DNA of 64,000 nucleotides, from the NCBI GenBank assembly GCA_903844735.1, contig CAIMUX010000121.1:3005-67004 (forward strand), given 5' to 3'. Position numbers and translations under genes: made by a program. Source of the DNA: Candidatus Eiseniibacteriota bacterium. Its GTDB lineage: Bacteria > Eisenbacteria > RBG-16-71-46 > CAIMUX01. The notes below the pieces were generated by a model, which was not told where the DNA came from, ran no database searches, and was given only the letters and a program-made list of their open reading frames with translations. The first letter of the stretch is position 1. Every line of letters begins with the position of its first letter. Below, one piece after another: positions 16,730-35,191 of the stretch.

Positions 16730-19000
16730 TCACCGACCCTTCGCGTCCTCCAGCATGCCGGCCTCGACCACGGCGAAGGCCGTCATGTTCAAGATGTCAT
16801 TCATTTCTGACTGCGGCTGGAGCACGTGCACCGGTTTCGCCATCCCCTGGAGGATGGGTCCGATCTGCTCCGCTCCGCCCAGCCGCTGCACGAGTTTGTA
16901 AGCGGCGTTGGCCGCCTCAAGCACCGTGAAGATGAGGACATTCGCCGTCCCCCCCGCGAGCTTGCTGAAGGGAAACAGGCTGGAGAGGAGCCCGGGGACC
17001 ACGGCGGTATCGGCATGCACCGGCCCGTCGACGACCAAGTCCGGCTCTTCCTTCGCGAGGATGCGCAGCGCCTCCTCCACTTCCGCGATCCCCGGCCCAC
17101 GGGCGGTCCCGAAGTTGGAGTAAGAGATGAACGCCACCCGCGGGATGACGCCGAATTCACGCGCCGTCTGCGCCGTCTGCCGCGCGATCTCGGCCAGGGC
17201 CCGGCCATCCGGCCGGATGTTGACGGTTGTATCGGCGAAGAAGTACATCTGGTCACGTGTGAGCATGACGTGGACGCCGCTGACCCGGCTCGCCCCCGAC
17301 TTGAGTCCAACGATCTGCACGCAAGGACGGATCGTCTCGGGAAGTCTCTGGGCGATCCCGGCGATCATGCCATCGGCGTCTCCCAGCCGCACCATCATCG
17401 CACCGAATTCGTTCGCCGAACGCATGGCGATCCGCGCGCCATCCAGGGTCTCCCCCTTGCGCTGCCGCAGGCGGTAGTACTCCTGGACATAGGCATCGAA
17501 CCGCGGGTCGTGCTCCGGATCGATGATCACGGTGTCGCCGAGGTCGAGATCGAGCTCGCGGCACTCCTGTTCGATCACCTCACGGCGTCCGATGAGGATC
17601 GGATGGGCCATCTTCTCCTCGCGCACCATGGCGGTGGCGCGGAGGATGCGGCGGTTCTCCCCCTCGGGGTAGACGATCCGCTTGGGTGCGCTGCGCGCCT
17701 TGTGGATGATCGTGCGCATGACCCCGCGGGTCTTCCCGAGCAGACTCTCCAGCTGGTCGCGGTACTCGTCGAGATCAAGCGGCTTCTGCGCCACCCCGGT
17801 TTCCATGGCTGCGCGCGCCACGGCCAAGGCCTCCCAGACCAACACGCGCGAATCGAACGGCTTGGGGATCAGGTACTCGCGGCCGAAGTGGAAATATTGG
17901 TCGCCATACGCTTTGCTGACCGAGTCGGGCACATCCTGCTTGGCCAGCTCCGCGAGGGCGCGGGTGGCCGCCATCTTCATCGCTTCGTTGATGGTGGTGG
18001 CGCGGCAATCCAGCGCTCCGCGGAAGATGAAGGGGAAGCCGAGAACGTTGTTGACCTGGTTCGGGTAGTCGGACCGCCCGGTGGCCATGATGACGTCCTT
18101 GCGAGCGGCCACCGCATCCGGGTAGGTGATCTCAGGATCCGGGTTGGCCATCGCGAAAACGATCGGGTTCGCGTTCATGTGCTTCAACCACTCGGGCTTC
18201 AACAACCCCTTCCCGGAGAGGCCGAGGAAGACGTCGGCTCCCTTCAGCGCGTCCTCCAGCGTGCGCGCCGAGGTCTCGCGGGCGAACTGCTCCTTGTAGG
18301 GGTTCATCCCTTCGGTGCGGCCTTTGTAGATCACGCCTTTCGTGTCGAGCATGAGAATGTTCTCGAGCCGGATCCCGAGGCTGATGTAGTGCTTGGAGCA
18401 GGCAATGCCGGAGGCGCCGGCGCCGGAAACCACAACTCTCGTATCTGACGCTTTGCGCCCAGTCAGTTCGAGAGCGTTGATGAGCGCGGCCCCCGAAATG
18501 ATGGCCGTGCCGTGCTGGTCATCGTGGAAAACCGGGATCTTCATCGTGCGCTTCAGCTCTTCCTCAATGATGAAGCATTCGGGCGCTTTGATGTCCTCGA
18601 GATTGATCCCACCAAAGGTGGGTTCCAGAAGCTGGCAGGTGCGGATGATCTCCTGCGGGTCCAGGCTGTCGATCTCGATGTCGAAGACATCAATGTCGGC
18701 AAAGCGCTTGAAGAGGACCCCCTTCCCCTCCATCACCGGCTTGCCGGCCAGAGCGCCGAGGTTGCCTAGCCCCAGCACGGCGGTACCGTTGCTGATCACC
18801 GCTACGAGGTTTCCGCGCGCGGTGTACTCGAAGGCCAGGTCAGGGTCCTTCTCGATCTCGAGACACGGTTCCGCCACCCCCGGGGTGTAGGCCAGCGAGA
18901 GATCCCTCTGCGTCAAGCACGGCTTGGTCGAGTTCACCTCGATCTTTCCCTTACGCCCTCGGCTGTGGTACTCCAGTGCGTCGCTCAATTTCTTCGTCAT
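16730..19000 (-). CDS. maeB: NADP-dependent malic enzyme with C-terminal PTA-like domain (catalytic residues intact)
   Basis: AYTPGV, KPVMEGK, GINLEDI, FHDDQHGT, GAGASG and GRSDYPNQVNN; AGGAGG RBS. Confidence 0.97.
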   Translation of the reverse strand: MTKKLSDALEYHSRGRKGKIEVNSTKPCLTQRDLSLAYTPGVAEPCLEIEKDPDLAFEYTARGNLVAVISNGTAVLGLGNLGALAGKPVMEGKGVLFKRFADIDVFDIEIDSLDPQEIIRTCQLLEPTFGGINLEDIKAPECFIIEEELKRTMKIPVFHDDQHGTAIISGAALINALELTGRKASDTRVVVSGAGASGIACSKHYISLGIRLENILMLDTKGVIYKGRTEGMNPYKEQFARETSARTLEDALKGADVFLGLSGKGLLKPEWLKHMNANPIVFAMANPDPEITYPDAVAARKDVIMATGRSDYPNQVNNVLGFPFIFRGALDCRATTINEAMKMAATRALAELAKQDVPDSVSKAYGDQYFHFGREYLIPKPFDSRVLVWEALAVARAAMETGVAQKPLDLDEYRDQLESLLGKTRGVMRTIIHKARSAPKRIVYPEGENRRILRATAMVREEKMAHPILIGRREVIEQECRELDLDLGDTVIIDPEHDPRFDAYVQEYYRLRQRKGETLDGARIAMRSANEFGAMMVRLGDADGMIAGIAQRLPETIRPCVQIVGLKSGASRVSGVHVMLTRDQMYFFADTTVNIRPDGRALAEIARQTAQTAREFGVIPRVAFISYSNFGTARGPGIAEVEEALRILAKEEPDLVVDGPVHADTAVVPGLLSSLFPFSKLAGGTANVLIFTVLEAANAAYKLVQRLGGAEQIGPILQGMAKPVHVLQPQSEMNDILNMTAFAVVEAGMLEDAKGR

Positions 19001-19152: not shown

Positions 19153-19177
19153 CCCTGAGACTCGGAGTAAGGAACGA
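19153..19177. repeat. 25-bp dispersed intergenic motif, copy 2
   Basis: CCCTGAGACTCGGAGTAAGGAACGA, 24/25 identical to 13567-13591. Confidence 0.85.
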
Positions 19178-19185
19178 ATACGGCT

Positions 19186-19340: not shown

Positions 19341-19429
19341 TCCGCACGGCGTGTATACTCGGCGGACGCCCCCCGGTACCGAGGCGCGCGGGACAGGCCC
19401 GCGCGGCCCGTGTGCGGAAAGGAGTTCCC

Positions 19430-20482: not shown

Positions 20483-20521
20483 ACGCCGGCGGCCGGGAAG
20501 CCCGCAGATCCTTCCCCGAAC

Positions 20522-20549
20522 TCAAGACAGCCGACTCGGCGGACGATAG
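20522..20549 (+). promoter_or_regulatory. Putative sigma28-type promoter
   Basis: TCAAG-N15-GACGATAG, the same spacing as 9622-9649, about 40 nt upstream of the next start. Confidence 0.45.
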
Positions 20550-20591
20550 ATATCCCGTCGGCAGTCAGGTCTTTCTGGGGAGGAGTACACG

Positions 20592-21659
20592 TTGGATCCG
20601 GCGATGAACGGCGCGGCGAATCCGGACCGCCCGGACTACCAGGTGGCCCTCTGCTGTCCTGCCTGCGGGGAACGCTCGTTACAGCGGGTCATGAAGTCCA
20701 ACCTGCTCCTCCCGGTGCGGGTCCCGGGGCACCCGTTCTTGCGCGCCTACACCTGGTCTGACGGCAAGCCCAGAGAGTCACATCCGTTGCATTTCGGTGT
20801 CTGTTTCTGCCCGTGCTGCCACTACCCGGATATCGAGGCCGACTTTCGCGATGGAGCGGGCCGCACCCACGACATCAGCCGTACGCTACGACGGTTCTTC
20901 GTGGAGCAGTTGGTCGGATGGGGCCGGCCACTCGCCGACATTCTCGGAACCGGCATGGAGAGCATGGAAGACCCCGAGCGGACGACGCGTCTCCACCTCG
21001 CGGCCATCGCGACGCAACGTCTGATCTATCCCGAACTGTGGCGCCGCCGCGAGATCGGGCAGCTCTATCTTCGTCTGGCTTGGCTCTACCTAGACGAGAA
21101 GCACCTGCGCTGGGATCCGGATCACCCCACCGCACCGCCTACCTACGAGATCGAAGGACCGGGCTACGCACGGATGCAGGCAGTGCTCGCCCAGCTTGAA
21201 CCGATCCGCGCGGCGTGGCCCGAGATTCCCCTGGACGAAGAGTCGACCCGACGCGAGGTCCTCAAGTTCCACCAGGAGGCGTACACCCGGCACAGCGGCA
21301 CCCTCACGCCGGAAGAGAGCGTGGCCGATGAGCGTCTCCTGGCCGTTCTGTTCGGCTTGAACGGGGACCAGGAGATGGCGAAAGAAATGTTCGAGCGTGC
21401 CCTCGACTCCTGCATCCGGCTGCGCCAGGAAGCCACCCAGCAGCAGTCAGGGGCCTGGAACAGCGGCCTCAGCGCCACCGAGACCAAAGCGCTCGCGATC
21501 CGCATCCAACGTCTCAGCAAGAGCGCCGAGGGGATTAGGGATGAGATGAACACGGCATTCCCTCCCCCCAAGGCCCGGGTGTCGGCTCTCCCGCCTTCGC
21601 GCAGGAGCACCACCGCATCATCTCCCAAGAAAAGGCGGATCTTCGGCATCTTCGGCTAG
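20592..21659 (+). CDS. DUF2225-like protein (CxxC...CxxC zinc ribbon plus helical repeat region)
   Basis: CPACG ... HPLHFGVCFCPCCHY ... IGQLYLRLAWLY pattern; GGAGGAG RBS before TTG 20592. Confidence 0.7.
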   Translation: MDPAMNGAANPDRPDYQVALCCPACGERSLQRVMKSNLLLPVRVPGHPFLRAYTWSDGKPRESHPLHFGVCFCPCCHYPDIEADFRDGAGRTHDISRTLRRFFVEQLVGWGRPLADILGTGMESMEDPERTTRLHLAAIATQRLIYPELWRRREIGQLYLRLAWLYLDEKHLRWDPDHPTAPPTYEIEGPGYARMQAVLAQLEPIRAAWPEIPLDEESTRREVLKFHQEAYTRHSGTLTPEESVADERLLAVLFGLNGDQEMAKEMFERALDSCIRLRQEATQQQSGAWNSGLSATETKALAIRIQRLSKSAEGIRDEMNTAFPPPKARVSALPPSRRSTTASSPKKRRIFGIFG

Positions 21660-21681
21660 GAGCCCTGCTAGACTCTCTCGC

Positions 21682-22377
21682 ATGACCCGAAATCGCCTGC
21701 TCCCCGCCCCGGTGGAAGAGATGCCGTGCGTGCTGGCGCCCGGCCGGCTCACGCCACCCCTCGACTGGCGCGCCATCTTCGGTCGCACCGGCGAGGTGGA
21801 GATCGAAATCGGCTGTGGCAAGGGACGTTATATCGTGGAGGCGGCCCGGCTCCGGCCCGGCTCCGATCTCGTGGGAGTCGAGCGGGCCGGGAAGTGGTTT
21901 CGCCGTGCCGTCCAGCGCGCGCATCGCTCCAGCCTTCCCAACCTCCGGCTCGTGCAGGCCGATGCGTTCGATTTCCTGGCCCGCTGGGTTCCGCCCGGTT
22001 CCGCCGCGGCGGTTCATGTGTATTTCCCCGACCCGTGGCCGAAGCAACGGCACGGCAAGCGGCGACTGCTCCAGTCGACTTTCTACCACCTTGCCGCCCG
22101 GGCGCTCTCGACGACCGGATGGCTGTACCTCGCCTCCGACGTAGAGCCATACTTTCAGACCGCCGTGGCGGAGATCGCGGCCCTGGGTCTTTTCGAGCCA
22201 CAGCCATGGCCGGAGGATGCACCGGATCGGATCCCCACCAATTTCGCCGTCAAGTACGCCAGGGAAGGGCGCCCGCTCTTCTATGCGCGCTACTCGATGC
22301 TTACTGGGAGGCTGCGCGCGGAGATGGAGCCCAGCCCTTTCCCCGTGATAGTCTCCCTGGCCGGGGAGGAAACATGA
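21682..22377 (+). CDS. trmB: tRNA (guanine-N7)-methyltransferase
   Basis: EIGCGKG, VGVE, YFPDPWPKQRHGKRRL, LASD and TNFAVKY. Confidence 0.93.
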   Translation: MTRNRLLPAPVEEMPCVLAPGRLTPPLDWRAIFGRTGEVEIEIGCGKGRYIVEAARLRPGSDLVGVERAGKWFRRAVQRAHRSSLPNLRLVQADAFDFLARWVPPGSAAAVHVYFPDPWPKQRHGKRRLLQSTFYHLAARALSTTGWLYLASDVEPYFQTAVAEIAALGLFEPQPWPEDAPDRIPTNFAVKYAREGRPLFYARYSMLTGRLRAEMEPSPFPVIVSLAGEET

Positions 22378-22829
22378 CGCAGCGAACCGAATGGCACGAC
22401 TACTTCATGCGGATCGCCGAAGAAGTGGCGACCAGGGGTACCTGTGACCGACGCCGGGTGGGAGCGCTCATCGTGCGGGACCGGATGATCCTTTCGACCG
22501 GCTACAACGGGAGTGTCCGCGGGATGCCGCACTGTGACGAGGCCGGCCACATGATGGAAGACGACCACTGCGTGGCGACGATTCATGCCGAGGCGAACGC
22601 CATCCTCCAGGCCGCGCGCAACGGCGTGCGGATAGAGGGGGCGGAGATCTACACCACCGCCAGCCCGTGCTGGAACTGTTTCAAGATGATCACCAATGCC
22701 GGGATTACGCGGATCTATTACGGCGCCTTCTACCGGGAGCGCCGGATTTTCGAGGTCGCCGAACGGCTGGGAATCGAGCTGATCGACCTTTCCGCCGGCC
22801 GGGACGACCTACGGGAGGAAAGAGACTGA
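22374..22829 (+). CDS. dCMP deaminase (ComEB-like)
   Basis: WHDYFM, TGYNG, HAEANA and SPCWNC zinc motif; ATG 22374 has GGAGG and overlaps the trmB stop. Confidence 0.93.
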   Translation: MTQRTEWHDYFMRIAEEVATRGTCDRRRVGALIVRDRMILSTGYNGSVRGMPHCDEAGHMMEDDHCVATIHAEANAILQAARNGVRIEGAEIYTTASPCWNCFKMITNAGITRIYYGAFYRERRIFEVAERLGIELIDLSAGRDDLREERD

Positions 22830-22896
22830 AGGGACGCCCGGGACGGGCCGATGCATGACGCGGGGCCGGGTCGCCGGCAGGCAAGGAGGAGGACCG

Positions 22897-23577
22897 ATGA
22901 CGAGGGAACGGACCGGCTCGAGTCACGACGGGCAGCGGAAACGGCCGACGAATCGCACAGGACGCGCCGAAGACGACGAGGACGACGAGGAAGAGACTCC
23001 ATCCGAGGAGACGAAGAAGGGCGAAGGCGAGGAGTCCCGCATGGCGGAGAAATTCCTCCGTGCTCGGACCATCCTAGTCTCCGAGCCGATCAGTAGCGAT
23101 CTCGCCAAGCGGATTTACCAGGGACTGATCCTCCTCGAGTCGGAGGATGCGGAAAAAATGATCACTGTGGTGATCAACTCCCCTGGCGGCGAGGCCGACA
23201 CCGGCTTCGGAATCTACGACATGATGCGCTTCGTCGGCCCGCCGATTCGCACGGTGGTCGCCGGGCTGTGCGCCTCGGCCGCGGTGATGGTATTCCTGGC
23301 GGCTGAGAAAGATCAACGCTTCAGCCTGCCGAACTCGCGGTTCTTGCTCCATCAGCCGTCGTCAGCCAACTTCGGCCAGGCCTCCGATCTCGAGATCGCC
23401 TCGCGCGAGATCTTAAAACTGCGGGACCGCTACAACGAAATCGTGGCCGGGGAGACAGGCAAGACGCTCCAGCAGGTCACCGAGGACACCGACCGCGATT
23501 TCTGGATGTCGGCCCAGGACGCCGACGAGTACGGACTGGTTTCCAAGGTGGTCACGCATCGCAAGGAGATGGGCTGA
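22897..23577 (+). CDS. clpP: ATP-dependent Clp protease proteolytic subunit
   Basis: INSPGG, catalytic CASAA (Ser), LLHQP (His) and DRDFWM (Asp); AGGAGG before ATG 22897; acidic N-terminal extension. Confidence 0.94.
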   Translation: MTRERTGSSHDGQRKRPTNRTGRAEDDEDDEEETPSEETKKGEGEESRMAEKFLRARTILVSEPISSDLAKRIYQGLILLESEDAEKMITVVINSPGGEADTGFGIYDMMRFVGPPIRTVVAGLCASAAVMVFLAAEKDQRFSLPNSRFLLHQPSSANFGQASDLEIASREILKLRDRYNEIVAGETGKTLQQVTEDTDRDFWMSAQDADEYGLVSKVVTHRKEMG

Positions 23578-23727
23578 GACGCAGGTCCCGCGGGATAGCC
23601 GCGCTCACGGAGTGCGGTCCATCGCGCCGCTGTGGAAACGGTGGCCCGACGACAGGCCGGGCCGCCGTCTTGCGAACGGCTCCCGGCCGAGCGGCCATAA
23701 CGGCCTCGTTACTACTCAAGCAAACAG

Positions 23728-23850
23728 GACTCCGGAGTCAGAATTCAGAATGCCACACCACCAAGTCCTCACATCTCGTCGAGGAGCGTCCTCATTCTGA
23801 CTCCTGACTACTGGATTCTGACTCCTGACTTCCGGCCTCTGATTACTGAA
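23728..23850 (+). repeat. Dispersed ~100-bp intergenic element, copy 2, with a short inverted heptamer arm on the left
   Basis: Homologous to the reverse complement of 9680-9780. Left arm GGAGTCAGAATTCAGAAT can pair with right arm ATTCTGACTCCTGACT. Lies between convergent clpP and mdh. Confidence 0.9.
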
Positions 23851-23865
23851 CAGATTCCCCGGCCT

Positions 23866-24873
23866 CTACGTCCGGAGCAACTTGTCGACTTCCCGGCAGG
23901 TCTTCTGTACTGCATCCGCCGATAGCGCCAGACCGTTCTTTTCCTGTGCGGTCAGGTCCACCTCGATGATCCGCTCGATCCCGTTCTTGCCGATGATCGC
24001 GGGCACGCCGACGAAGAGATCCCGCACGCCGTACTCCCCCTGCAGCAGGCAGCACACGGCCAGGATCTTCTTCTTGTCATAGATGATCGCCTCGGCCATC
24101 TCGAGCGCGCTCAGCGCCGGCGAGACGAAGGCGGAGCCGAAGCCGAGGAGTCCGACCACCTCGCCGCCCGCCTTGCGCGTCCGGTCTTCGATCGCGTCCA
24201 GCCGGTCGGGTGCGATGAACGACTCGACGGGCATGCCCGCGATGCGGCAACAACTGCGCACCGGAACCATGGTGTCACCGTGCCCGCCCAGCACCATCGC
24301 CTCGACGTTTTCCACGCTGACCCCGGCCTCCTGCGCCACGAAGTACCGATAGCGAGCGGAGTCGAGCACCCCCGCCATGCCCAGCAGGCGACTCTTCGGC
24401 ACACCGAGTCTCTTGTACAAGGTATACACGATGGCGTCGAGGGGATTGGCAATCGATATGATCATCGCCCTGGGACAGTGCTTCCGGATGGCGTCGGCCA
24501 CCTCCCCGGTGACCTTGAGATTGATCGCCAGCAACTCCTCGCGCGAAGGGAACGTCCCGTCGGCACGCGCCTTGCGCGGCACCCCGGCGGTGTTGATGAC
24601 CATGTCGCACCCGTCGAGAATGTCGTAGTCCCGGCTTGCCTGGAGCACGACATCGCTGCCGATGAGCGGTGCCCCTTCGGCGATGTCCAGAGCCTTGCCC
24701 TGGGCGACCGATTGCTTGCGCACCACGGCCTGCTTCTCGGAAGGATCGTTCGGGTTAACGAAGGGAGCGGGGTCGGTCACGGCCACGACCCTGGCGAGGC
24801 GCCGGCGGGCCAGTTCCTGCACGAGAACGCCGCCGATGAATCCGCCGCCGATGACGCCGATCTTGTCCAACAC
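23866..24873 (-). CDS. mdh: Malate dehydrogenase (LDH-like MDH)
   Basis: IGGGFIG, GKALD, TAGVPRK (Arg specificity residue), NPLD, GVLDSAR and LGGHGD; GTG 24873 follows AAAGGAG. Confidence 0.93.
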   Translation of the reverse strand: MLDKIGVIGGGFIGGVLVQELARRRLARVVAVTDPAPFVNPNDPSEKQAVVRKQSVAQGKALDIAEGAPLIGSDVVLQASRDYDILDGCDMVINTAGVPRKARADGTFPSREELLAINLKVTGEVADAIRKHCPRAMIISIANPLDAIVYTLYKRLGVPKSRLLGMAGVLDSARYRYFVAQEAGVSVENVEAMVLGGHGDTMVPVRSCCRIAGMPVESFIAPDRLDAIEDRTRKAGGEVVGLLGFGSAFVSPALSALEMAEAIIYDKKKILAVCCLLQGEYGVRDLFVGVPAIIGKNGIERIIEVDLTAQEKNGLALSADAVQKTCREVDKLLRT

Positions 24874-25142
24874 GGGTCGGTCTCCTTTCATGGATTTCGG
24901 CCGGGGCCACGCCATCGAGAGCGTTCCGGCCGGCCGGTGTCTGCATGCCGATGCGCGTCAGACGACGAGGAAAGCGCCGCCGCATCATCGAGAAGCATCA
25001 CCGGAAGGCCGTGATTGTCAAGCTCTCTTGCGGCGATCTGAGAGTCGGAGCAATCCAGCTTCGGTCAGACGCACGCCCACCGAGATCGCCACGAAGATGG
25101 AGTCGCGGCCGGGAAGAGAGTATTCTTTGGCGGGTAACACGA

Positions 25143-28100
25143 ATGGATGAAGAGACACCCAAATCGCCGACGCCGACGACGGGTCTGGATCGCCCCCTCG
25201 AAGCCACGGGCCTCGAGGGGCCCTCCGAGACCACGCGCCTCGATGGGCCCTCCGAACGCACGGACTTCGCCCCCCCCCCGCAATACACCGGGACCAATTT
25301 CGGGGCACTGGAGCCCGCGCTTCGGGACCTGGAATCCCAGTTCACGCTGGTCATGGGCCGTCCGGAGCGCGTCGTGGAGGCGTGCCGAATCCTCTCCGTC
25401 CAACTCGAGGCGGCGGACGACCCGGACCTCGCGGATCGTTGCCACGCTCGGGTAGTCACTCAACTGCACGTGCGGCAGGGCGGCGTCGCGCAAGCGCTGA
25501 TCCCCTTCCTGGAGGAGCGAGCGCGGCGCGGACCGAACCCTCGCCGCATTATCCTGAGCCTCCTCGTAGCCCGCGATGATGTTGCGCGGCGCCACGGGCT
25601 TCGACTGGCGTGCGAGATGATCGAGTCGGGGCGGATCGCAGCCGACGTCGCGGCGATCCGGGGCCTGGCGTTCGCGATCGAGGAAGACGAGGCTGCGGGG
25701 AGGGATGTCGCGCTTCTGGAGCGGGTCAGAGATGCCTTGCGGGGCATCAATCTCGCCCCCACGTCTGGGGAGCTGGTGGACCACGGGCCGGTTGCGCGTG
25801 GTGCGGAACCCCTCTCCCCCGCTTCCGCTGGGCTGCACGACCGGCTTGAGGCGCTTCTCCTGCAGGCGCCGGACCCGAGAGTGCGATTCCTGGCCGCCCG
25901 GCTCCTCGATCTCCCGGGAACCCCCGTGCCCGCTGACCGGCTGGCGCGCCTCTTCGGCGCCGAGACGGCTGCCGTGCTCGCCCCGTATCTGGCGTTCACG
26001 CGGGCCACGCACCGCAACATGGTGGAGCTGACCCCCGAATCACGAGTTTCCCCCGCGCTCCTTTCCTCGATGCAGGACGCGGAGCGCGCCCTCGGCCGGC
26101 CCCTGCTCGGCGAAGTGCTGGGCGAACTCGGCTGGGACCGCCTCGCCTGGGGCATCTCGTGCCGACGCCTCGTGGGCTTGAGCCTGGACGGAGGGTTCCC
26201 GCTCGCCGTCACGCCGGCCGAGGCGATGCTCCTCGACTCGTGCGGGCCCGCGCGGCGCACATGGGACCGTTTCCTCGTCGTGGCCCATGGTGGGTCGGCG
26301 TCGGGTGAGAACGACAACGACATGGAAGCGACGGCCGTCCAGCGGTTTCGCAAGTATAACATCCTCCACGCGGAATTGCTGGGCGAAATCCTCGAGGTCG
26401 CGCCACTCACCCCCGCCAAGGTGCGCCGGATCGTCGAACGAATGGAACAGGTGGTCAGCCACTTCGCCGTTCTGTTCAGAGAGCATTCCGAGGATGCGAC
26501 GCGGGTCGAAGCCTGCTTCGCCGCCCTCCGCGATCGGGCCATCCGGCTGATGGCGGAGGCGCCCGATGACCAGCCGCTGCAGGCCGAGGTGGCCCGCGTC
26601 GTGCAGATGTTCGAGGATCCGCGATCACTTGACGATGTGCGCACGCTGCACGGCCTCAAGCGCTACCTGCACCAGCAGGGACTGCGTCTCGCGTTTCGCG
26701 CTTTCCGTTCCGGTCGCGCAACCAACCGGACCGTCGACGTAGCCATCGCCAACGCCAGTCGCGTCCTCCAGGTGGTTCGGCGGATTCGCTACATCGACTT
26801 CGAACCGGACCCGGGAGCCGAGCCGGGAGATCTCCCCTACCCGGTCGCCCTCATCGCTGAGGTACTGGGCCGCCGCCTCGTCCACGGAAAGATCGAGTCG
26901 CCCGACTTCGAGATCCTGGCCTACGGGAACGAAATCCAGATCTTCATCGGGTTCCGTAATCATCCGGTTTTCCTGCGCCTCGATCTCTCGCCGCCCCAGC
27001 GCGGCGGCATGATCGACCTTGAATACTACGGCGTGAGCCAGTACGAGCTCGACCGCCACCCCGATCTTTCGCTTCAGTGGGTGCAGCGGGTGTTCCGCCG
27101 CCTCGACTTTGACGTCCGCGTCGAACAGTTCCGTCTGCACATCCGCTACGACAAGGAGCGGGCGCTCGACTTGGGCGACCTCCTCGCGCATGTGCGCATC
27201 CTCGGTTACCTCTTGCCCCACTTGATGGACCTCGACTGGGTGATCGCCGTGCTCGACTATCCAGAGACGGCCAAGGCGCAGGTCGCCGACGCGTGGGCCG
27301 ACCTCATTCCTGACTGGGGCTGGCTCCCGATCGCGGAACTTCTGACCGCGGACCGACGGCACATCCTGCGCGGAATCGCCGCGGACCCGGCGGGAGAACG
27401 CGAGGTCCGCTGGGATGGACACGGGGAGTATCGCGACCGATTCATTGGCGTGCCCGATCGGGCGGTATGGGGTCGGATCCGTGCGCAACTCGAAGCGGGC
27501 GGCCTGGCCCGGTTTGTCCCCTGGCCGGAGTTGACCGAACTTCCGGTCGCGCAAATTCCGCTGGAGAAGTTTCTCTTCACGCCCCTCCGCGAGGCCGTAC
27601 ACCTCGGAGGCCTGCGAGAGACTCATGCGGGGCCCATGCCGACGGCTCCCGACGGGACACCCTCACCGCACGAGGCCGAGGCGTTAGCACAGATCCTTCT
27701 CCGCGGCGGGGCGCCCCTCGATGAAGCGGCGAGGATCGCCACCGTCGTCGGATCGATCGAGCGACATCTTCGCTTCGTCACGAGCGGCAGCATCCAGGGG
27801 TACCCGGTCCAGCGGGCCACGCTTGTTTTGCGCGGCGAGCGGGTGGAATTGTCGGTCCTGAGGGACGCCGACGGCATCGCGCGACTCGCGCTCGCTGACG
27901 ACTGCCCGATGCAGAGCTGGACCGGCACCCGCGGTCGATCGCATCTCGGCGTCGGACCCCGACTCGATTGCCGCGAGCTGATTCGGCGGCTGCGTCGCGA
28001 CAACTACGTGGCCGTCGCCTACGAGTCGCCAATCGAGCAGGACGGCCGACGGGCGGCGCTCACTGCCGTCTTCGCCGCACCGAACGCGCTGGCCCCGCCC

Positions 28101-30572
28101 GGCCACTCCCCCGGCGACCTAGTCATCGAGGGGATCGTAGCCTCGTCCGGCAGGGCGGCCGGTTTTGCACGCCTTGGCACCGAAGGGCGCTCGCTGGATG
28201 AGCTGGACGGTGCCATCCTCTTCGCTCCTGCGTTCCGGCCGGACGACACGCCGCTTCTTCGCCGGTCTGCCGCGATTGTCTCGACCGGTGGAGGGATTCT
28301 GAGCCACGCCGGGCTGATAGCACTCGAACTGCACAAGCCCGCGCTCGTCATCTCCGGTCGTTGGAGGAAGGATCCCACCGATGGGGGCACGGCCTCCTTC
28401 GAGGGGACGCCGGATGGCAGCAGCGCGCTCGCCTACCGGCACTTCGACTTTCGGGAGGACGAGCGGGCGATCGGTCCGTACGCTGTGCTCCTGCGGCGCG
28501 ACCTGCACGAGCGTGAGCAGATTCTTCGCGAGGGAGATCTTGTCGTGGTGGACGCCGAAGTCGGAACCCTCACCGTTCTCGGGCAGGATCGCGACGCCCT
28601 CGCTCTCCAGCGAGAGCTGCGCCAAATCGACACGGTCGCCGGGGAGCTGGGACGGGAAGAGGCCGGACCCCGGCTCCTTCTCCTGCGCGGGCGGTGGCAC
28701 CGGGCTGTGCACCAATTGAAGAAGCTCCTTTCCCGCATCGACCGACCCGCGCTAGCGCGCCACGCCGCGCGGGAGCTGCTCTTCGCGCGCAGCGCCCCGT
28801 CGTCGATGCCCGGCCGCGACGACGTCGGAGGGCTGCTCCACGCGCTCTTCGCGAATGCGGCGGTAGGCGAGGCCGCCCGGCTGGCGGCGCGGCGACAGCA
28901 CGTCGAACTGGCCCGGCGGCACGGGGCCTATGTCCGCGAGGCGCTGAGGATCATCCCGATCACGGACAGCGTGCCGGAAATTCTTCACCTCCGCCTGGGT
29001 GTGATCCAGGTGCGCAGGCGCCTCGACGCGCTCGCCCGACTGCTGAACTCGGTCGGCATGGCCACGGCCTATGCCGGACAGCATCCGGACCTCGACTTCT
29101 GCGCGCGGCGGCGCCTCGATGAACTGCGGGAACAGCTTCGCCGTGAGTTGGCGTCGACCTCGGACAAGGAAGGAACATCGGACGCGGCAAGTGCCACCAA
29201 CGATGGCGGGCCGTCCTGGATCCGGCGGCATCGTCTCGAACGTCTGGAGTCGCTAGAACGCGTGTTGCCCGGAGCGGATGATACGGCCGTCACTTCCGCG
29301 GAGAGCGCGATTCCCCGGGAGAGCGCGGCCTCCTACGAGGGCGCGGCCGGCGCGGATGGACTGAGAGATCGGCAAACCGATCGACCGGAGAGAGCCAGGA
29401 GCCTCGCAGCGCAGCGTCGCGACTTGGCACGCCGTCTCCCCGGGCGCCTGATCCTCGACTCCCGGGACGGCGGACGCGAGCTCGCTCCCCTCATCGGTAG
29501 CAAGGGCGCCAACCTCGGCGAGATCGCACGGATCCTCGGACCCGATCGGGTCCCTCCGTGGTTTGCCACTACCGACGCGGCGTTTCAGGAGCTCATGGCC
29601 GGTCCACCGGGTCGCGCGGCCGCGGCGGTGGGTATTGATGCGGCTTGCCCGTCGCTGGCAGCGGCCATCGACGAAATCCTGGGGCGACCGGACAGCCGCG
29701 CAGCACGGAAGGCAGCGGCCATCCGGCAGCTCTGGGAAGGAGTGCCGCTTTCCCCGCGCCTCGAGGCCGAGATCGACGCGGCGTACCACGCCCTGGGAGA
29801 GGGGTGCTTCGTCGCCATCCGCTCTTCCGCCTTCGAGGAAGACACAGAGGGCAGCTCGTGGGCCGGACAGTTCGACACTTTCCTTTTCATCCAGAGCGAA
29901 GAGGCGGTGCGCGATCACGTCAAACTGGCGATGGCGAGCCTGTGGACCGAGCGGGCCCTCGTTCACCGCGAGGAGGACGGCGACGTGACGACGCGGCGAG
30001 GCGACGGCGATGTCGTATCGAGCGAAGAGGCCGGCGACCCGACGATGGGGCGAGGTGGCGGCGTCATCGTCCAGAGAATCGTGGACGCACGGGTGGCCGG
30101 CGTGCTGCACACCCTGTCCGCCACCGCCGGCCAGGCCCGCGAGATGGTCATCAACGTCGGCCTCGGTCTCGGCGAGGGGGTCGTCTCGGGGACGGTCGAG
30201 GTGGACCACATCGTCGTCTCGCGCGAAACCTCCCTCGAAGAGGATCCCCTCCGCGTTCACTACCTCGTGGGCGACAAGAGCAGCCGGATCGTCTTCGACC
30301 GGCTCGCCGGCTCCGGGACGCGCCGCGAGGAGACCCTCTACCACCAGCGCTTGCGTGCGGCCCTCGAGTACAGCGATCTCGGAGATCTCGTCCGCGCCGC
30401 CGCGAGCTTAGAGCGCGTCTACGGGTTCCCCCTCGATATCGAGTTCGCCTTCGAGGAGGACTCCCTCTACATTCTTCAGGTGCGACCCATCGTCGCCTTT
30501 CAGAACGCGCTGCGCGCGACGCTCGAACAGGCCCCGCTGACCCCGGTCGTCGCGCACGGCGGAAAGGATTAG
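25143..30572 (+). CDS. Giant PEP-synthase/pyruvate,water-dikinase-like protein: unknown N-terminal ~1000 aa, phospho-His swivel domain, C-terminal ATP-grasp (PPDK_N)
   Basis: GGGILSHAGLIALELHKPA (His at ~28305) precedes GSKGANLGE, VAIRSSA.EED...AGQFDTFL, GLGEGVVSG and DIEFAF...LQVRPI (~29490-30490). Start uncertain; the ORF is open from 24945. Confidence 0.85.
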   Translation: MDEETPKSPTPTTGLDRPLEATGLEGPSETTRLDGPSERTDFAPPPQYTGTNFGALEPALRDLESQFTLVMGRPERVVEACRILSVQLEAADDPDLADRCHARVVTQLHVRQGGVAQALIPFLEERARRGPNPRRIILSLLVARDDVARRHGLRLACEMIESGRIAADVAAIRGLAFAIEEDEAAGRDVALLERVRDALRGINLAPTSGELVDHGPVARGAEPLSPASAGLHDRLEALLLQAPDPRVRFLAARLLDLPGTPVPADRLARLFGAETAAVLAPYLAFTRATHRNMVELTPESRVSPALLSSMQDAERALGRPLLGEVLGELGWDRLAWGISCRRLVGLSLDGGFPLAVTPAEAMLLDSCGPARRTWDRFLVVAHGGSASGENDNDMEATAVQRFRKYNILHAELLGEILEVAPLTPAKVRRIVERMEQVVSHFAVLFREHSEDATRVEACFAALRDRAIRLMAEAPDDQPLQAEVARVVQMFEDPRSLDDVRTLHGLKRYLHQQGLRLAFRAFRSGRATNRTVDVAIANASRVLQVVRRIRYIDFEPDPGAEPGDLPYPVALIAEVLGRRLVHGKIESPDFEILAYGNEIQIFIGFRNHPVFLRLDLSPPQRGGMIDLEYYGVSQYELDRHPDLSLQWVQRVFRRLDFDVRVEQFRLHIRYDKERALDLGDLLAHVRILGYLLPHLMDLDWVIAVLDYPETAKAQVADAWADLIPDWGWLPIAELLTADRRHILRGIAADPAGEREVRWDGHGEYRDRFIGVPDRAVWGRIRAQLEAGGLARFVPWPELTELPVAQIPLEKFLFTPLREAVHLGGLRETHAGPMPTAPDGTPSPHEAEALAQILLRGGAPLDEAARIATVVGSIERHLRFVTSGSIQGYPVQRATLVLRGERVELSVLRDADGIARLALADDCPMQSWTGTRGRSHLGVGPRLDCRELIRRLRRDNYVAVAYESPIEQDGRRAALTAVFAAPNALAPPGHSPGDLVIEGIVASSGRAAGFARLGTEGRSLDELDGAILFAPAFRPDDTPLLRRSAAIVSTGGGILSHAGLIALELHKPALVISGRWRKDPTDGGTASFEGTPDGSSALAYRHFDFREDERAIGPYAVLLRRDLHEREQILREGDLVVVDAEVGTLTVLGQDRDALALQRELRQIDTVAGELGREEAGPRLLLLRGRWHRAVHQLKKLLSRIDRPALARHAARELLFARSAPSSMPGRDDVGGLLHALFANAAVGEAARLAARRQHVELARRHGAYVREALRIIPITDSVPEILHLRLGVIQVRRRLDALARLLNSVGMATAYAGQHPDLDFCARRRLDELREQLRRELASTSDKEGTSDAASATNDGGPSWIRRHRLERLESLERVLPGADDTAVTSAESAIPRESAASYEGAAGADGLRDRQTDRPERARSLAAQRRDLARRLPGRLILDSRDGGRELAPLIGSKGANLGEIARILGPDRVPPWFATTDAAFQELMAGPPGRAAAAVGIDAACPSLAAAIDEILGRPDSRAARKAAAIRQLWEGVPLSPRLEAEIDAAYHALGEGCFVAIRSSAFEEDTEGSSWAGQFDTFLFIQSEEAVRDHVKLAMASLWTERALVHREEDGDVTTRRGDGDVVSSEEAGDPTMGRGGGVIVQRIVDARVAGVLHTLSATAGQAREMVINVGLGLGEGVVSGTVEVDHIVVSRETSLEEDPLRVHYLVGDKSSRIVFDRLAGSGTRREETLYHQRLRAALEYSDLGDLVRAAASLERVYGFPLDIEFAFEEDSLYILQVRPIVAFQNALRATLEQAPLTPVVAHGGKD
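25176..25256. repeat. Degenerate 27-bp in-frame tandem repeat, 3 units
   Basis: Encodes TTGLDRPLE / ATGLEGPSE / TTRLDGPSE. Confidence 0.7.
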
Positions 30573-30578
30573 AACGGC

Positions 30579-32837
30579 ATGATCCGACGCGAAGAAAGCC
30601 TCCGGTACCACGAGGGAGACCGGCCGGGCAAGATCGAAGTCAAGATGAGCAAGCCCTGCCTGAGCCCGCGGGAGATGCGCCTGGCCTACCTTCCCGGTGT
30701 CGCATGGCCCGTGCGGGAGATCGCCGACAACCCGGCCAACGTCTGGCGCTACACCGCGCGCGGCAACCTCGTCGGAATGGTGAGCAACGGGAGCGCAGTC
30801 CCCGGGCTCGGTGACGTGGGCCCCGCCGCCGCCAAGCCGATCCAGGAGGGGATCGCACTGCTCTTCAAGCGGTTCGCCGACATCGACGTCTTCGATCTGG
30901 AGCTCGACGCGCGGGACCCGGAACGGATCGTCGACTTGGTGCGCACGCTGGAGCCGACCTTCGGCGCGATTTGCATCAAGGACATCCGCGCGCCCGAGGG
31001 GCTCGAGATTTATGATCGGCTGCGGGAGACGATGTCGATCCCTGTCTTCCACGAGAATTTGTACAGCACCGCGATCGTGGCCATGGCGGCTCTGATCAAC
31101 GCCCTCGACCTCGCGGACAAGGAGATCTCGTCGGTGCGGGTTGTCATCTGCGGCGCCGGCACCGTCGGTCTCGGGTGCGCGCGCCTGCTCACGGCGCTGG
31201 GCCACCCCCCCGAGAACCTGCTCCTCTACGACATCCGGGGGCTCGTCTCCCCCGACCGGGAAGACCTGCACAGATACCAGAGGGACTTCGCCCGCGACGA
31301 CGCGGCGCGCACCTTGGAGCAGGGGCTCAGGGGCGCCGATGTGTTCCTCGGCGCCTCCACGGGCGGCGTTCTGACCCCCGAGATGATCCGCTCGATGAGC
31401 CGCTTTCCGATCGTCTTCGGCATGGCCACGCCGGCCCCTGAGATCGCCTACCAGGAGGCGCGCAGCACGCGGCGCGATGCCATCGTGGGCACGAGTTTCG
31501 GACAGGACCCGAATGCCATCGTCGACCTCCTGAGCTTCCCCTATGTTTTCCGCGGCGCCCTCGACGTGCAGGCCAAGGGAATCTCCGAACGGATGATGCT
31601 GGCCGCGGCGCGCAGCCTCGCCGAGCTGGCGCGCGAGGAGGTCCCGGAGGAGGTGAGCCGCGCCTACGGCGACGAATCGTTCACGTTCGGCCCGGACTAC
31701 CTCCTGCCCATGCCGATCGATCCGCGCATCCTCGTGCGGCAGTCGGCCGCCGTCGCGCGGCAGGCGATGGAGGAAGGCCTCGCCGGTCGCTCCGTGCCGG
31801 TGGACGGGTACGAGGAGTCGCTCGCGGTGCGCCTCGGAACCACCCGCGAGTTGGTTCGCCGGCTCATCACCAAGGCGCGTTCCGTCAACCCGCGGATCGT
31901 CCTGCCCGAAGGAACGAGCGAGAAGATCCTCCGCGCCTGCGCCCTTCTCATCGACGAGGGAATCGCCAACCCGATCTTGGTCGGCACCGAAGAGGACGTG
32001 CACCGTGCGGCCGAACGCCTCGGGATCGACCTCGGCGGCGTCGCCATCGTCGACCCGGCCCACAGCCCGCACTTCGACGCCTACGCGGCGGAGTACCTCA
32101 CCCTCTGCGGTCGGCGCGGTGTGACTCCCGACCTCGCACGGACCCGGATGACCCACGCCCGGCACTTCGCGGCACTGATGCTACACAAAGGCGACGCCGA
32201 CATGATGATCTGCGGCGCCACCGACCACTACGCCGAGTCGATGCGAACCGTCCTGGAGATTATCGGCCCCGCCCCCGGCGTGCGGCGGATCTCCAGCTTG
32301 CACATGGTCCACCGTCCCAAGGAGGTCTACTTCCTCGCGGACTGCTCCGTGAACATCGAGCCGGATGCCGAGGATCTCGCCGAGATCGCGCTGCTTGCCG
32401 CGCGGACCGTGCGCGCGCTTGGGATCGAGCCACGAGTGGCGATGTTGTCGTTCTCCAACTTTGGAAGCGTCGATCACCCGCTGGCGCGCAAGGTGCGGAC
32501 AGCCACGCGGATCGCGCGCGAGCGGAACCCCGGGCTTGTTATCGAGGGGGAACTCCAGCTTGAGACGGCGCTCGACGCGAAGATCCGGCGGCGGTACTTT
32601 CCGTTTTCGGATCTCACGCAGAATGCGAACGTTCTTGTTTTCCCCGACTTGCAGTCGGGGAATCTCTCGTTGCACTTGTTGCAACAGATCGGCGAGGGGA
32701 TCGCGGTGGGTCCGATCTTGATGGGGACGCGGCTGCCGGTGCACGTGATCCAGCAGGGATCACCGGTGGATGATGTGGTGAATCTGGCGGCGGTGGGGGC
32801 GTTGCAGGTGGCGGGGGCGCTGACTGGAGGGATGTAG
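30579..32837 (+). CDS. MaeB-like malic enzyme/PTA fusion paralogue with degenerate active site
   Basis: Full-length and colinear with 16730-19000, but MEGK is QEGI, NLED is CIKD, HDDQHGT is HENLYST and GRSDYPNQVNN is [11 protein letters not shown]. Confidence 0.9.
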
Positions 32838-33293
32838 CTGGGCGGCGAGCAGCGCCCGACACGCCAAGACTTCTGCGCGGCGCTGAAGTTGTTCACAAAG
32901 AACCTGCCGGTCGGAGACCCCGTGCGGTCTTCATCCGAAACAGCGCATGGCAAGGCACCCGATGCCGCTTGGCCCGATGATCGACCGGCCCGATCGCGCA
33001 GGTTCGGCCGGCGGCGGTGGCTTCCGTGCGTGGCGCTCGTCCCGGGCACGATCATGGCCCTGGTCGGTGCTGGGCAGTCCGGCGCCGAACGCGTGAACTG
33101 CAGCGAGTATCCGCGCTGGGTCGGACGCTGGAGCCATCAGCGTCGCCGTTCGGGGAGACATCGCCTGCGTGCCTTGGCCCGCCGGTGGCGCTCCGAAAGG
33201 CAACCTCGGTCTCACGAACCGGGCGATCACTGGCTTCAGATTGGCCACTCGACATTCTTCCCGCACGGGACACGGCGGGACAGACAACACCAC

Positions 33294-34757
33294 TCAGAAA
33301 CGCGGACCGGCCAAGGCCTGGGCCTCAAACCCATTTCCATCCGTGGCGAGGTCGAGGCTCAACAGACCGGCGAACGGCACGACGAGGCGGAGCCCCGCTC
33401 CGACGCCCCAACGCCCGCGCACGCTGCCCCGGGACCAATCGCCACGATTCCAGATCGCCCCAGCGTCGACGAAAACCGCTCCATCGACGGTGAGATCGAA
33501 GGTATTCGAAAACGGCGGCGGCAGGGTAATCTCCCAGCGGGGAAGCAGCGGGAGGCGCTCCTCCACCCACCCCGACCAGCGATTGTCCCCTTCGTAGACA
33601 TCGGGGCGGTGCCCGCGCAGGTCCGTGGGACCACCGAGGTCCAGCCTTAGAAACGCGGGCACGCCCCCGCGGCTCACGACCGTGCGGGAGGCGAGCGTGA
33701 GCACCGCCACGCCCGCGGCGCGAACGAGCATGGCGTCGAGCGCGTACCGCTCCATCGCCAAGCTCCCACCGAGGAGCCCGCCGTGAGCCGCGGCCCGCAC
33801 CGCGAGTACCTCACCATGGCGCGGGCGTGCTCGATAGTCGCGCGTATCGATCCGCGCTCCGGCCTCGAACCAGCGATGGTCATCGCGGCGCGAGGTGGCG
33901 GCGCCCGTGAAGTCGGGCGGGGGGGTCGCGTCGGGGTGCGCACGCACCTGCTCCCAGCCCGCACCGAACGGGAAGGACAGATGCAGCCCGCGCATCGGAG
34001 CAAGCCCGGCATTGATTCCAGAGTGCCGTTCGATCGAGCCCTGCGAGAGACTCCGAGTCCGCCGCAGGCTCCCCTGCGCGCTGAAGCCAAGCCGCCGGCC
34101 GAGCACCCAGCGGGTCGCGTATCCGGCCTGCAGATAGCGCCGCGCTCCCGTCCCGGCGGCGATCCACGCAGACCGGGCCATGCCGCCGAGGTTCAGCGTT
34201 GACGCAGAAGCACCGTAGGTGAAGCCCTGTCCCTGTTCCCACGAAAGGGTCGGCAATGCGAGAAAATCGGGACGCTCACGCACACGGACAACGAGAATCG
34301 GACGATCAAGGCCTCGATCGCGCCGAGGGACAAGGCTCACACTGGCGAAGAGGCCGAGATCGAGCAGACGCAATCGATCGCGCTCCAGATGATCCCAGTC
34401 GAGATGTGCCCCGGCACGGGCGGATAACTCGCGGCGCACGATCAGCGAACGGGTTCGATCGAGTCCCTGGATCTCCACCGCGAGAAGCGGCCGGTCGATC
34501 CAGAGTCCCGGATCCTCGGTTGCCGCGCCGGAGGCCGGGAAAGAGACGGCGACCAACGACACCAGCAGCAGCGTCACCTGCACCGACAGCCGAGGCACCT
34601 GCCCCGGCCGCCGAATCACCCAGGACGACCTGACCTTTCGAGGCACCGAAACCAGGGGAGAACACGAGGGGCGGGGGCGCATGCCAAGACCGACGCGAGC
34701 CGTCACTTCGGCACTAGGGCGATGGCCCAGTAACCTTGAGGCTGGAGGTGCCGTCAT
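33294..34757 (-). CDS. Omp85/BamA-TamA family outer-membrane protein (single POTRA plus barrel)
   Basis: VEIQGLDRTR..IVRREL...LGLF (POTRA), LGGPTDLRGH, FVDAG, GVGAGLRL and terminal Phe. Start probably somewhat downstream of 34757. Confidence 0.85.
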   Translation of the reverse strand: MTAPPASRLLGHRPSAEVTARVGLGMRPRPSCSPLVSVPRKVRSSWVIRRPGQVPRLSVQVTLLLVSLVAVSFPASGAATEDPGLWIDRPLLAVEIQGLDRTRSLIVRRELSARAGAHLDWDHLERDRLRLLDLGLFASVSLVPRRDRGLDRPILVVRVRERPDFLALPTLSWEQGQGFTYGASASTLNLGGMARSAWIAAGTGARRYLQAGYATRWVLGRRLGFSAQGSLRRTRSLSQGSIERHSGINAGLAPMRGLHLSFPFGAGWEQVRAHPDATPPPDFTGAATSRRDDHRWFEAGARIDTRDYRARPRHGEVLAVRAAAHGGLLGGSLAMERYALDAMLVRAAGVAVLTLASRTVVSRGGVPAFLRLDLGGPTDLRGHRPDVYEGDNRWSGWVEERLPLLPRWEITLPPPFSNTFDLTVDGAVFVDAGAIWNRGDWSRGSVRGRWGVGAGLRLVVPFAGLLSLDLATDGNGFEAQALAGPRF

Positions 34758-35191
34758 TCATTCCCCGAGCTCCCGGAGTCGATCGCCCTAACCATCAAGA
34801 AGCCGACCCCCGCGGCCCCGGTGGCATACAGCAAGGTCTTGGCCGGGTCACGCCGTACGATGGCGACGGAGTCGACCGCAGCCAGCGCCATGTGGTGGGC
34901 GTGGATCTCATCCTCGTAGTAAACCCCGGCATGATCCGCCGTGCCCCCTTTGGAGGATGATCGCTCGACCGTGATTTTGTACTCACCCACCACTGTGTCG
35001 GGATAGACCGCGACGCGCAGAAACTCGTATTTCGCCCCACCCTGAAGGAAGACCACGCTTCGGGCAAAGACATCCCCGGGGTGCAGACTGTCGTGACGGA
35101 TCACCCGGGATGACGTGCATCCCGCCCCCCCGACCGCAAGCCCCGCCGGCACCAGGAGAAGCGCCCAAAGCACCAGGGAACGGACTTTCAT
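34754..35191 (-). CDS. Putative lipoprotein
   Basis: Signal peptide ending GAGC; 4-nt overlap with the Omp85 ORF. Confidence 0.65.
   Translation of the reverse strand: MKVRSLVLWALLLVPAGLAVGGAGCTSSRVIRHDSLHPGDVFARSVVFLQGGAKYEFLRVAVYPDTVVGEYKITVERSSSKGGTADHAGVYYEDEIHAHHMALAAVDSVAIVRRDPAKTLLYATGAAGVGFLMVRAIDSGSSGNE

Follow-up and report, generated by a model that had tools for sequence, protein, structure and literature searches.

We analysed a 64,000-nt stretch of the Candidatus Eiseniibacteriota bacterium contig CAIMUX010000121.1 (positions 3,005 to 67,004 of the forward strand; hereafter the window), in which a gene for a 752-aa relative of the malic enzyme MaeB lies directly behind an open reading frame (ORF) for a giant protein resembling phosphoenolpyruvate (PEP) synthase (Table 1). 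A Shine–Dalgarno-like stretch, GGAAAGGA, is located within the 3′ end of the giant's ORF, ahead of the MaeB-like gene. A canonical MaeB, the sole other malic-enzyme match in this genome, is encoded 11.6 kb from the MaeB-like gene and lies outside the two-gene module, serving here as comparator. An earlier reading of the same DNA, hereafter the original prediction, had described the MaeB-like protein as a full-length MaeB paralogue with an intact frame and a dismantled active site, and had suggested selection for a non-catalytic or altered function. Below, we place this protein in a conserved clade without the catalytic signature of MaeB, describe the fixed pairing of the clade's gene with the giant and weigh what the pair may do.

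Table 1 Features of the paired genes and of the comparator gene, in window coordinates, with counts among 137 clade members and 51 canonical MaeBs.
Feature	Position	Strand	Evidence or state
Giant PEP-synthase-like protein, ORF of 1875 aa	24945..30572	+	Pfam PEP-utilizers and PPDK_N
Phospho-His domain of the giant, H1121	28287-28313	+	Invariant TGGGxLSH motif
6-nt spacer, TAG stop of the giant to ATG of the MaeB-like gene	30573..30578	+	
MaeB-derived putative pseudo-malic enzyme, 752 aa	30579..32837	+	ORF, Pfam, homology to canonical copy
Malic enzyme (ME)-like half	aa 1-420	+	
Phosphotransacetylase (PTA)-like half	aa 426-752	+	
AYLPGV, general-acid Tyr37 on crossover helix (Bdellovibrio Y52), kept	30684-30701	+	Clade 136/137
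KPIQEGI, general-base Lys position is Ile92	30834..30854	+	Clade I65/V35/M34/A2; canonical K 51/51
ICIKDI, metal-ligand Glu replaced by K134	30969..30986	+	Clade K132/R4/L1; canonical E 51/51
Asp135 in ICIKDI, metal ligand, kept	30969..30986	+	Clade D 137/137; canonical D 51/51
FHENLYST, Asp-Asp pair (one the metal-ligand Asp) replaced by Glu-Asn	31047..31070	+	Clade E135, N132; canonical D, D 51/51
GAGTVG, Rossmann dinucleotide motif, kept	31152..31169	+	Clade G192 137/137, G194 135/137, G197 136/137
GRSD loop and substrate Asn pair, replaced	31494..31526	+	Clade: first Asn to V62/L54, second Asn to D 135/137; former GRSD positions variable
ADCSVN, PTA-like coenzyme A (CoA) cleft	32337..32354	+	Equivalent of Bdellovibrio T614 altered and that of N616 retained; Cys589 invariant in the clade
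SGNLSLH, acyl pocket, Bdellovibrio Y721 and K722 replaced by Leu and His	32655..32675	+	Clade L 120/137, H 115/137; canonical Y 51/51, K 49/51
Canonical MaeB, 756 aa, comparator outside the module	16730..19000	-	Same genome; catalytic motifs all intact

The MaeB-like protein retains the complete three-domain architecture of MaeB, as the original prediction had it. Malic N-terminal (PF00390), Malic_M (PF03949) and PTA_PTB (PF01515) domains occur in both paralogues, and those of the MaeB-like protein all exceed the Pfam gathering scores, its malic-domain scores being about half to four-fifths of those of the canonical copy (53.9 and 58.4 bits for malic and Malic_M, versus 100.3 and 73.9). BLASTP aligned the two proteins end-to-end with 347 of 745 residues identical (47%) and 3 gaps, and the best solved relative, Bdellovibrio MaeB (6zng), aligned over the full length (E = 1.7e-203). 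Against the NCBIfam model PRK12861, which has a cut-off of 1178 bits, the MaeB-like protein scored 688.5 bits and the genome's canonical copy, likewise below, 839.2. The frame is open over all 752 aa, as had been claimed, and the region was reproduced free of insertions and deletions in independent metagenome assemblies from other studies: a single contig of run X2 covers 24000-33500 with 19 substitutions, and a single contig of X4 covers 29638-33111 with 5. Population variants within the MaeB-like gene, two synonymous and two non-synonymous, are too few for inference.

To describe the ME-like half, we compared 137 clade sequences (the query, the 120 relatives ranked best in the database search and 16 full-length genome loci) with 51 canonical MaeBs. 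The two groups were set by rank in the search, by identity and by placement in the trees, before any motif was counted. Every motif change quoted in the original prediction was recovered (KPVMEGK to KPIQEGI, INLEDI to ICIKDI, FHDDQHGT to FHENLYST and replacement of the GRSDYPNQVNN loop), as was the retained Tyr of AYLPGV. The general-base Lys is present in none of the 137 clade members. The three metal-ligand positions read K134, D135 and N160 in the MaeB-like protein, leaving an acidic ligand at one of three. Three Asn of the substrate and nicotinamide pocket are also replaced, with Thr or Met in place of the Asn of ANP. The nucleotide-binding site, described earlier as retained, is only partly so: the GAGTVG motif stands, whereas the equivalents of Bdellovibrio K250, the Lys at the NADP 2′-phosphate, and of N300, the Asn that contacts the nicotinamide, are gone, being Gln in 135 of 137 members and Thr or Met, respectively (roles of Y52, K250 and N300 from Harding 2021). 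D218 and R227, equivalent to Bdellovibrio D233 and R242, are kept. The clade has lost the residues that oxidative decarboxylation of malate requires.

Several of the replacements are themselves conserved in the clade (K134 in 132, E159 in 135, N160 in 132, L161 in 131, D316 in 135 and S319 in 136 of 137 members), and R34, next to Tyr37, is a new clade-invariant residue, as is K134. Among 174 ME-domain columns that are at least 95% identical across the 51 canonical MaeBs, 34 are changed in the clade, including 7 of 9 catalytic or substrate positions (hypergeometric P = 1.7e-4; the list of nine is drawn partly from the general malic-enzyme literature and partly from Harding 2021). Loss of catalytic residues in the ME-like domain is therefore concentrated beyond chance.

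These features define a clade rather than a single aberrant gene. In a search of 5.8 billion proteins, the best 120 relatives taken were 63-95% identical to the MaeB-like protein, compared with 47% for the canonical paralogue. The query and all 120 relatives lack the catalytic Lys (KPxQEG[IVM] and variants), and most of the relatives bear [IV]N[LI]KD[ILVM] and FHENL[YD][SG]T. When one genome per species was scanned, 19 clade loci emerged at 60-80% identity, alongside 61 canonical loci at 42-52%. The 19 come from metagenome-assembled genomes (MAGs) labelled Acidobacteriota, Terriglobia, Thermoanaerobaculia, Eisenbacteria, Planctomycetaceae, Ignavibacteriales, Bacteroidota, Gemmatimonadetes and Anaeromyxobacter; all carriers found are MAGs. 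In 74-sequence trees the clade was monophyletic, with all 17 of its tips together (FastTree support 1.0; IQ-TREE SH-aLRT 91.8). It branched from within the canonical MaeBs, its sister being an enzyme from a Myxococcales MAG, and was subtended by a stem of 0.58-0.68 substitutions per site. Mean column identity was 75% across 24 members from MAGs of several labelled phyla. An ENLYST-type clade, whose existence had been raised as a check on the original prediction, is thus real, its motifs being carried by most of the 120 relatives and likewise seen at the 19 genome loci. A canonical MaeB accompanies the clade gene in 16 of 20 carriers (13 of 15 in a sample of the window's phylum and 3 of 5 in other phyla), indicating that the malic enzyme role is usually covered elsewhere; none was found in the other four, G124 (96% complete), G120 (92%), and G152 and G154 (completeness not known). 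Separately, a 2926-aa Symbiodinium protein named maeB (P0122), 41% identical to the query and bearing additional PF01597 and PF14349 domains, is unrelated to the clade.

We then measured selection within the clade as the ratio of non-synonymous to synonymous substitution rates (dN/dS, NG86). The closest pair (L004/L005, dS 0.24) gave 0.085, the window gene against L001 gave 0.14 and four more distant pairs gave 0.16-0.30 with dS near saturation; one very distant pair gave no estimate. Canonical MaeBs gave 0.016-0.064 in five close pairs and 0.114 in a sixth, which consists of short ME-only forms. Within the clade, dN/dS was similar in the ME-like and PTA-like halves. When the halves were placed in separate trees, the stem measured 0.676 for the ME-like half (tree length 14.2) versus 0.501 for the PTA-like half (tree length 22.2), and divergence within the clade was lower in the ME-like half (0.334) than in the PTA-like half (0.536). 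The clade is maintained under purifying selection, and its history is one of a burst on the stem followed by constraint, not of decay. Clade-wide motifs, monophyly and dN/dS of 0.085-0.30, well below 1, together bear out the earlier proposal of selection for a non-catalytic or altered function. Intact fold domains, lost catalytic residues, conservation across lineages and low dN/dS are the marks of a pseudoenzyme, and we infer that the MaeB-like protein no longer turns over malate.

The clade also has a constant genomic partner. A homologue of the giant lies directly upstream, on the same strand, at 19 of 19 clade loci versus 0 of 61 canonical loci (within the flanks examined). Across a sample of 151 genomes of the window's phylum, which may overlap the 19 loci, the giant's N-terminal region occurred in 14, and the MaeB-like gene adjoined it on the same strand in all 14; the only MaeB-like match without a giant was one of 157 residues (residues 4-160) in G120, and G015 has only the canonical copy. 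An upstream long ORF overlaps the start of the MaeB-like gene by 4 nt (ATGA) at 15 of 23 loci, effectively 14 of 22 because one locus (L017) is unreliable. Pairwise distances among the giants correlate with those among the MaeB-like proteins (Mantel r = 0.887, none of 5000 permutations as high, 13 loci), which fits co-inheritance as a unit, with relatedness alone contributing. No further conserved neighbour was seen beyond the two genes at the clade loci compared. The two genes form a fixed, often translationally coupled module with the MaeB-like gene downstream, a pairing that is new here. Because the MaeB-like gene is always encoded right behind the giant, the two proteins probably work as one unit.

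Several loci depart from the common arrangement or add to it. At L017:3763-12256, the giant is a 1612-aa variant with a divergent N-terminus, and a gene for a major facilitator superfamily (MFS) transporter (8704-9930) stands between the pair. In a 2410-aa protein from one metagenome contig (P0121), a single ORF joins the giant to a MaeB-like protein 62% identical to that of the window; we did not count it as a Rosetta-stone fusion, given that only 57 ATP-grasp residues match and that it may be a frameshifted gene call. Both genes are interrupted in two carriers, at L086 (G097:C1:2148000-2160000), with frame changes and 3 TGA codons in the MaeB-like match, and at G141:C2:349458-356700, where a 41%-identity MaeB-like match with 4 TGA codons lies directly downstream of the giant. 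Either the two genes are decaying together in these genomes, or the breaks are indel errors in assemblies made up of few contigs (4 and 7). Genes related to carboxylic acids stand beside some pairs: oxaloacetate decarboxylase beta and alpha subunits (L007:12299-14722), a DASS/CitMHS-type transporter (L015:12264-13715) and a GntP-family permease (L016:266-1582), all three anecdotal and not conserved. In the window, an Ldh/Mdh-family gene (23866-24915, minus strand) is divergent from the giant gene, a position conserved only in L001 (87% identity). Short contigs of metatranscriptome X16 match 25923-26132 and 30667-30881 with no differences and 28547-28748 with two; touching both genes, they give a weak hint of transcription, with DNA carry-over possible and a joint transcript not demonstrable from contigs. 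No Rfam family was found near the pair in the window (19000-35000, E <= 0.1), and six further loci yielded one tRNA only; PADLOC defence models matched neither protein.

In contrast to the ME-like half, the PTA-like half has changed little at positions invariant in canonical MaeBs, only 4 of 41 such columns being altered. It has the PTA_PTB fold (Pfam, E = 8.2e-103; Pta 1td9, E = 1.5e-64). Most CoA anchors are kept (Bdellovibrio numbering: R535 in 132, Y576 in 130, R581 in 130, N616 in 137, Q683 in 137 and Q748 in 132 of 137 members), as is P735, and K538 is Arg in 127 of 137. Three acyl-pocket residues, T614, Y721 and K722, are replaced in a consistent manner across the clade (Table 1): the T614 position is Ala in 129 of 137 members and Ser in the window protein, and C589, found in 137 of 137, replaces a residue that is Thr in 41 of 51 canonical MaeBs. 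At the PTA catalytic positions, the Asp position (Bdellovibrio V746) is Leu, Val or Ile and the Ser/Thr position (Bdellovibrio Y576) is Tyr in 130 of 137 members; the roles of these catalytic, CoA-anchor and acyl-pocket residues are taken from Harding 2021. As in MaeB, the catalytic Asp is absent, so PTA activity would not be expected; the MaeB-like protein also scores below the PTA cut-offs (272.9 versus 311.2 for TIGR00651; 295.5 versus 310 for PRK09653).

The giant combines recognizable dikinase domains with a large region that belongs to no family. Its order is a helical repeat, a four-helix bundle, an alpha/beta core, a swivelling phospho-His domain, a helical linker and a C-terminal ATP-grasp domain (aa 1515-1852). 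Pfam detected the ATP-grasp domain PPDK_N (PF01326, E = 2.3e-55) and PEP-utilizers (PF00391, E = 4.6e-10), PEP synthase 8a8e matched in two stretches (E = 1.1e-30) and the NCBIfam PEP-synthase score was far below its cut-off (208 versus 598). Because His1121 sits in an invariant TGGGxLSH motif and the ATP-grasp motifs align to PEP synthase, the giant looks catalytically competent. PEP-utilizers_C, the triosephosphate isomerase (TIM) barrel that binds PEP or pyruvate, was absent from the whole protein at E <= 1e-3. It was likewise absent when the first 1,533 residues were searched in four pieces against Pfam at E <= 1; the first three pieces gave chance-level matches or none (HEAT_2, 0.88; TetR_C_46, 0.1), and the fourth re-found PEP-utilizers. 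About 1,000 N-terminal residues belong to no family, and Protein Atlas offered no usable match for the N-terminal region or the core. The family comprises 217 clusters at 50% identity (E <= 1e-30), most full-length members having 1,600-1,760 aa. The first 66 codons of the window ORF (24945-25142) encode an Arg/Pro-rich stretch that has no match in relatives; proteins of the family begin some 15-30 residues ahead of the conserved region, and a 100% identical database form of 1809 aa (P0273) would begin at M67 (nt 25143).

AlphaFold2 models of the giant reached a mean predicted local distance difference test (pLDDT) score of 77.7 over 1186 aa and 76.5 over a 415-aa core. The modelled His domain resembles those of rifampin phosphotransferase (RPH; 5hv1, Z 15.0), Enzyme I (2wqd, Z 14.8) and pyruvate, phosphate dikinase (PPDK; 1vbg, Z 14.8), and a fold search with the 1186-aa model matched known structures only at this domain and at generic helical repeats. 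For the 415-aa core, Foldseek returned nothing at E <= 1e-3 and the best VIA match, the C-terminal domain of T4 MotA (Z 5.2), was within noise; parts of the core model were barely tested by these searches, and we therefore do not claim a new fold. The core is dense in invariant polar residues. Complex prediction for one fragment pair (giant aa 340-890 and ME-like aa 1-420) scored 0.00 in two runs, with no controls, and was counted neither way.

Taken together, we favour, at a probability of about 0.5, a reading in which the MaeB-like protein is a non-catalytic ligand-sensing or substrate-presenting partner of the giant dikinase that reuses the MaeB scaffold. It would consist of a PTA-like ring that senses CoA esters, attached to ME-like domains that change orientation in response to ligand. 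Such a protein might gate dikinase activity on an acyl-CoA, adenine-dinucleotide or carboxylate signal, or it might instead present a ligand in the former active site, now metal-free and rebalanced in charge by the new K134 and R34. A far more specific version would be an undescribed two-protein dikinase machine at the PEP–pyruvate–malate–acyl-CoA node, in which a MaeB-derived hexamer reads acyl-CoA and/or dicarboxylate in metal-free pockets and licenses the swivelling-His dikinase through MaeB rotary allostery, while a novel-fold core phosphorylates a substrate new to this enzyme class; in that full form we regard the proposal as doubtful.

Several observations weigh against the partner reading. 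At dS of 0.7-0.9 in GC-rich genes, synonymous sites are near saturation, making the higher dN/dS values rough. The nine former active-site positions, as a set, are not more conserved than average: their mean within-clade entropy is 0.61 versus 0.83 for ME-domain sites, 4480 of 20000 random sets were as low and three of the positions vary freely. The result speaks against a precise new catalytic site but equally offers no positive indication that there is a specific ligand pocket. The giant's large conserved core could itself hold the acceptor site, and given such a densely conserved core, the MaeB-like protein may be linked to the giant only metabolically and not physically. The one fused form found, P0121, is possibly a frameshift artefact, and none of the 150 best giant-family representatives is longer than 1942 aa. 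Finally, the window's own protein has Cys510 (aa 509-514, nt 32103-32120) at the equivalent of R535, the Arg that contacts the CoA 3′-phosphate in Bdellovibrio MaeB and that is present in 132 of 137 clade members and 51 of 51 canonical MaeBs; Cys is rare here (3 of 137), and binding of CoA esters may be weaker in this particular protein than in its relatives.

The chief rival holds that the clade is a neofunctionalized enzyme whose ME-like domain runs another, metal-independent reaction, with K134 and R34 replacing the divalent cation and a substrate that is perhaps the dikinase's product or precursor, making the two genes consecutive pathway steps. The specific and conserved replacements (such as K134, E159 and S319), the retention of Tyr37, D135, GxGxxG and D218, and a stem burst followed by strong constraint all suit a change of function, as might the carboxylic-acid-related genes beside some loci (L007, L015, L016, the MFS gene of L017 and the Ldh/Mdh-family gene of the window and L001). 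However, a hydrophobic residue that varies (Ile, Val or Met) has taken the place of the base, the residues at two former substrate Asn positions also vary, both the 2′-phosphate Lys and the Asn on the nicotinamide side are gone and the neighbouring genes are anecdotal, with no theme conserved. Real catalytic residues are normally the most invariant of all, whereas the former site here is not conserved above average, and we hold this alternative as tentative. Strict pairing and coupling could also arise if the giant were a protein-phosphorylating dikinase with the MaeB-like protein as its target. Swivelling His domains pass phosphate to separate proteins in the phosphotransferase system, the giant's His domain structurally matches Enzyme I, and the conserved Tyr37 and new invariant residues lie near the cleft. 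To our knowledge, though, those ATP-grasp-type dikinases whose structures are solved transfer phosphate to small molecules or to glucans; moreover, the giant's large conserved core looks like a substrate domain of its own and no acceptor residue can be named, making such phosphorylation improbable.

The remaining alternatives fare worse. The original prediction had raised the possibility of hetero-oligomers with canonical MaeB, in which the dead copy would mix into canonical hexamers and modulate them. Co-occurrence in 16 of 20 carriers, the 11.6-kb spacing in the window and the retained PTA-like oligomerization domain would permit this, but four carriers yielded no canonical copy, the clade gene's partner is found near none of the 61 canonical loci and the invariant neighbour is the giant, not MaeB. 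We accordingly do not favour such mixing and consider it quite improbable. That the gene is an inert relic on its way to loss is scarcely credible: the two broken pairs (G097, the L086 carrier, and G141) speak for it, yet sequencing indels may account for both, the assemblies consisting of 4 and 7 contigs, while frames are intact in the other carriers, dN/dS is well below 1 and mean column identity remains at 75% over 24 members from MAGs of several labelled phyla.

If the partner reading is right, an allosteric enzyme scaffold has been reused as a sensor for another enzyme. Databases currently name clade members 'NADP-dependent malic enzyme', 'malate dehydrogenase (oxaloacetate-decarboxylating)(NADP+)' or 'phosphate acyltransferase', and the giant 'pyruvate, water dikinase', 'PEP/pyruvate-binding domain-containing protein', a generic name or 'hypothetical'. 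Under these labels, reconstructions of the MAGs concerned (labelled Acidobacteriota, Eisenbacteria, Gemmatimonadetes, Bacteroidota, Ignavibacteriales, Planctomycetaceae and Anaeromyxobacter) probably miscredit both functions, and the second malic enzyme and the PEP synthase assigned to these organisms may be absent. The strict pairing offers a testable handle both on the role of a conserved dead malic enzyme and on the phospho-acceptor of a widespread giant dikinase. In its phylogeny section, Sassa 2025 covers clade 1, clade 2 and active enzymes left unclassified, and describes no clade that is inactive. Full-text literature searches, limited to main texts open without subscription, found no description of an inactive MaeB clade or of this gene pair.

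The module can be set beside several known systems. Like PEP synthase, PPDK and rifampin phosphotransferase, the giant has a PPDK_N ATP-grasp domain and a swivelling phospho-His domain with the catalytic His; unlike PEP synthase and PPDK, which run ATP-grasp, His and TIM barrel, it runs core, His and ATP-grasp, with no TIM barrel detected. A His-first order with the ATP-grasp domain C-terminal is otherwise seen in plant glucan, water dikinases. The C-terminal half of the MaeB-like protein shares the PTA_PTB fold with Pta (1TD9, 1QZT), with the catalytic Asp replaced by Leu, Val or Ile and the Ser/Thr by Tyr. The closest comparison is with MaeB itself (Bdellovibrio bacteriovorus 6ZNG and 6ZN4; E. 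coli 8JZO), whose three-domain architecture the clade reproduces at full length. Both lack the PTA catalytic Asp (for MaeB, according to Harding 2021), and the clade keeps the crossover Tyr, Asp135, GxGxxG, D218, R227 and most CoA-contact residues. It differs in lacking the general-base Lys, two of three metal ligands, three pocket Asn and the NADP 2′-phosphate Lys, in an acyl pocket altered by T614 to Ala, Y721 to Leu and K722 to His, and in the new invariant residues R34, K134 and C589. It differs also in its setting: the giant dikinase-like gene, absent at canonical MaeB loci, always precedes the clade gene.

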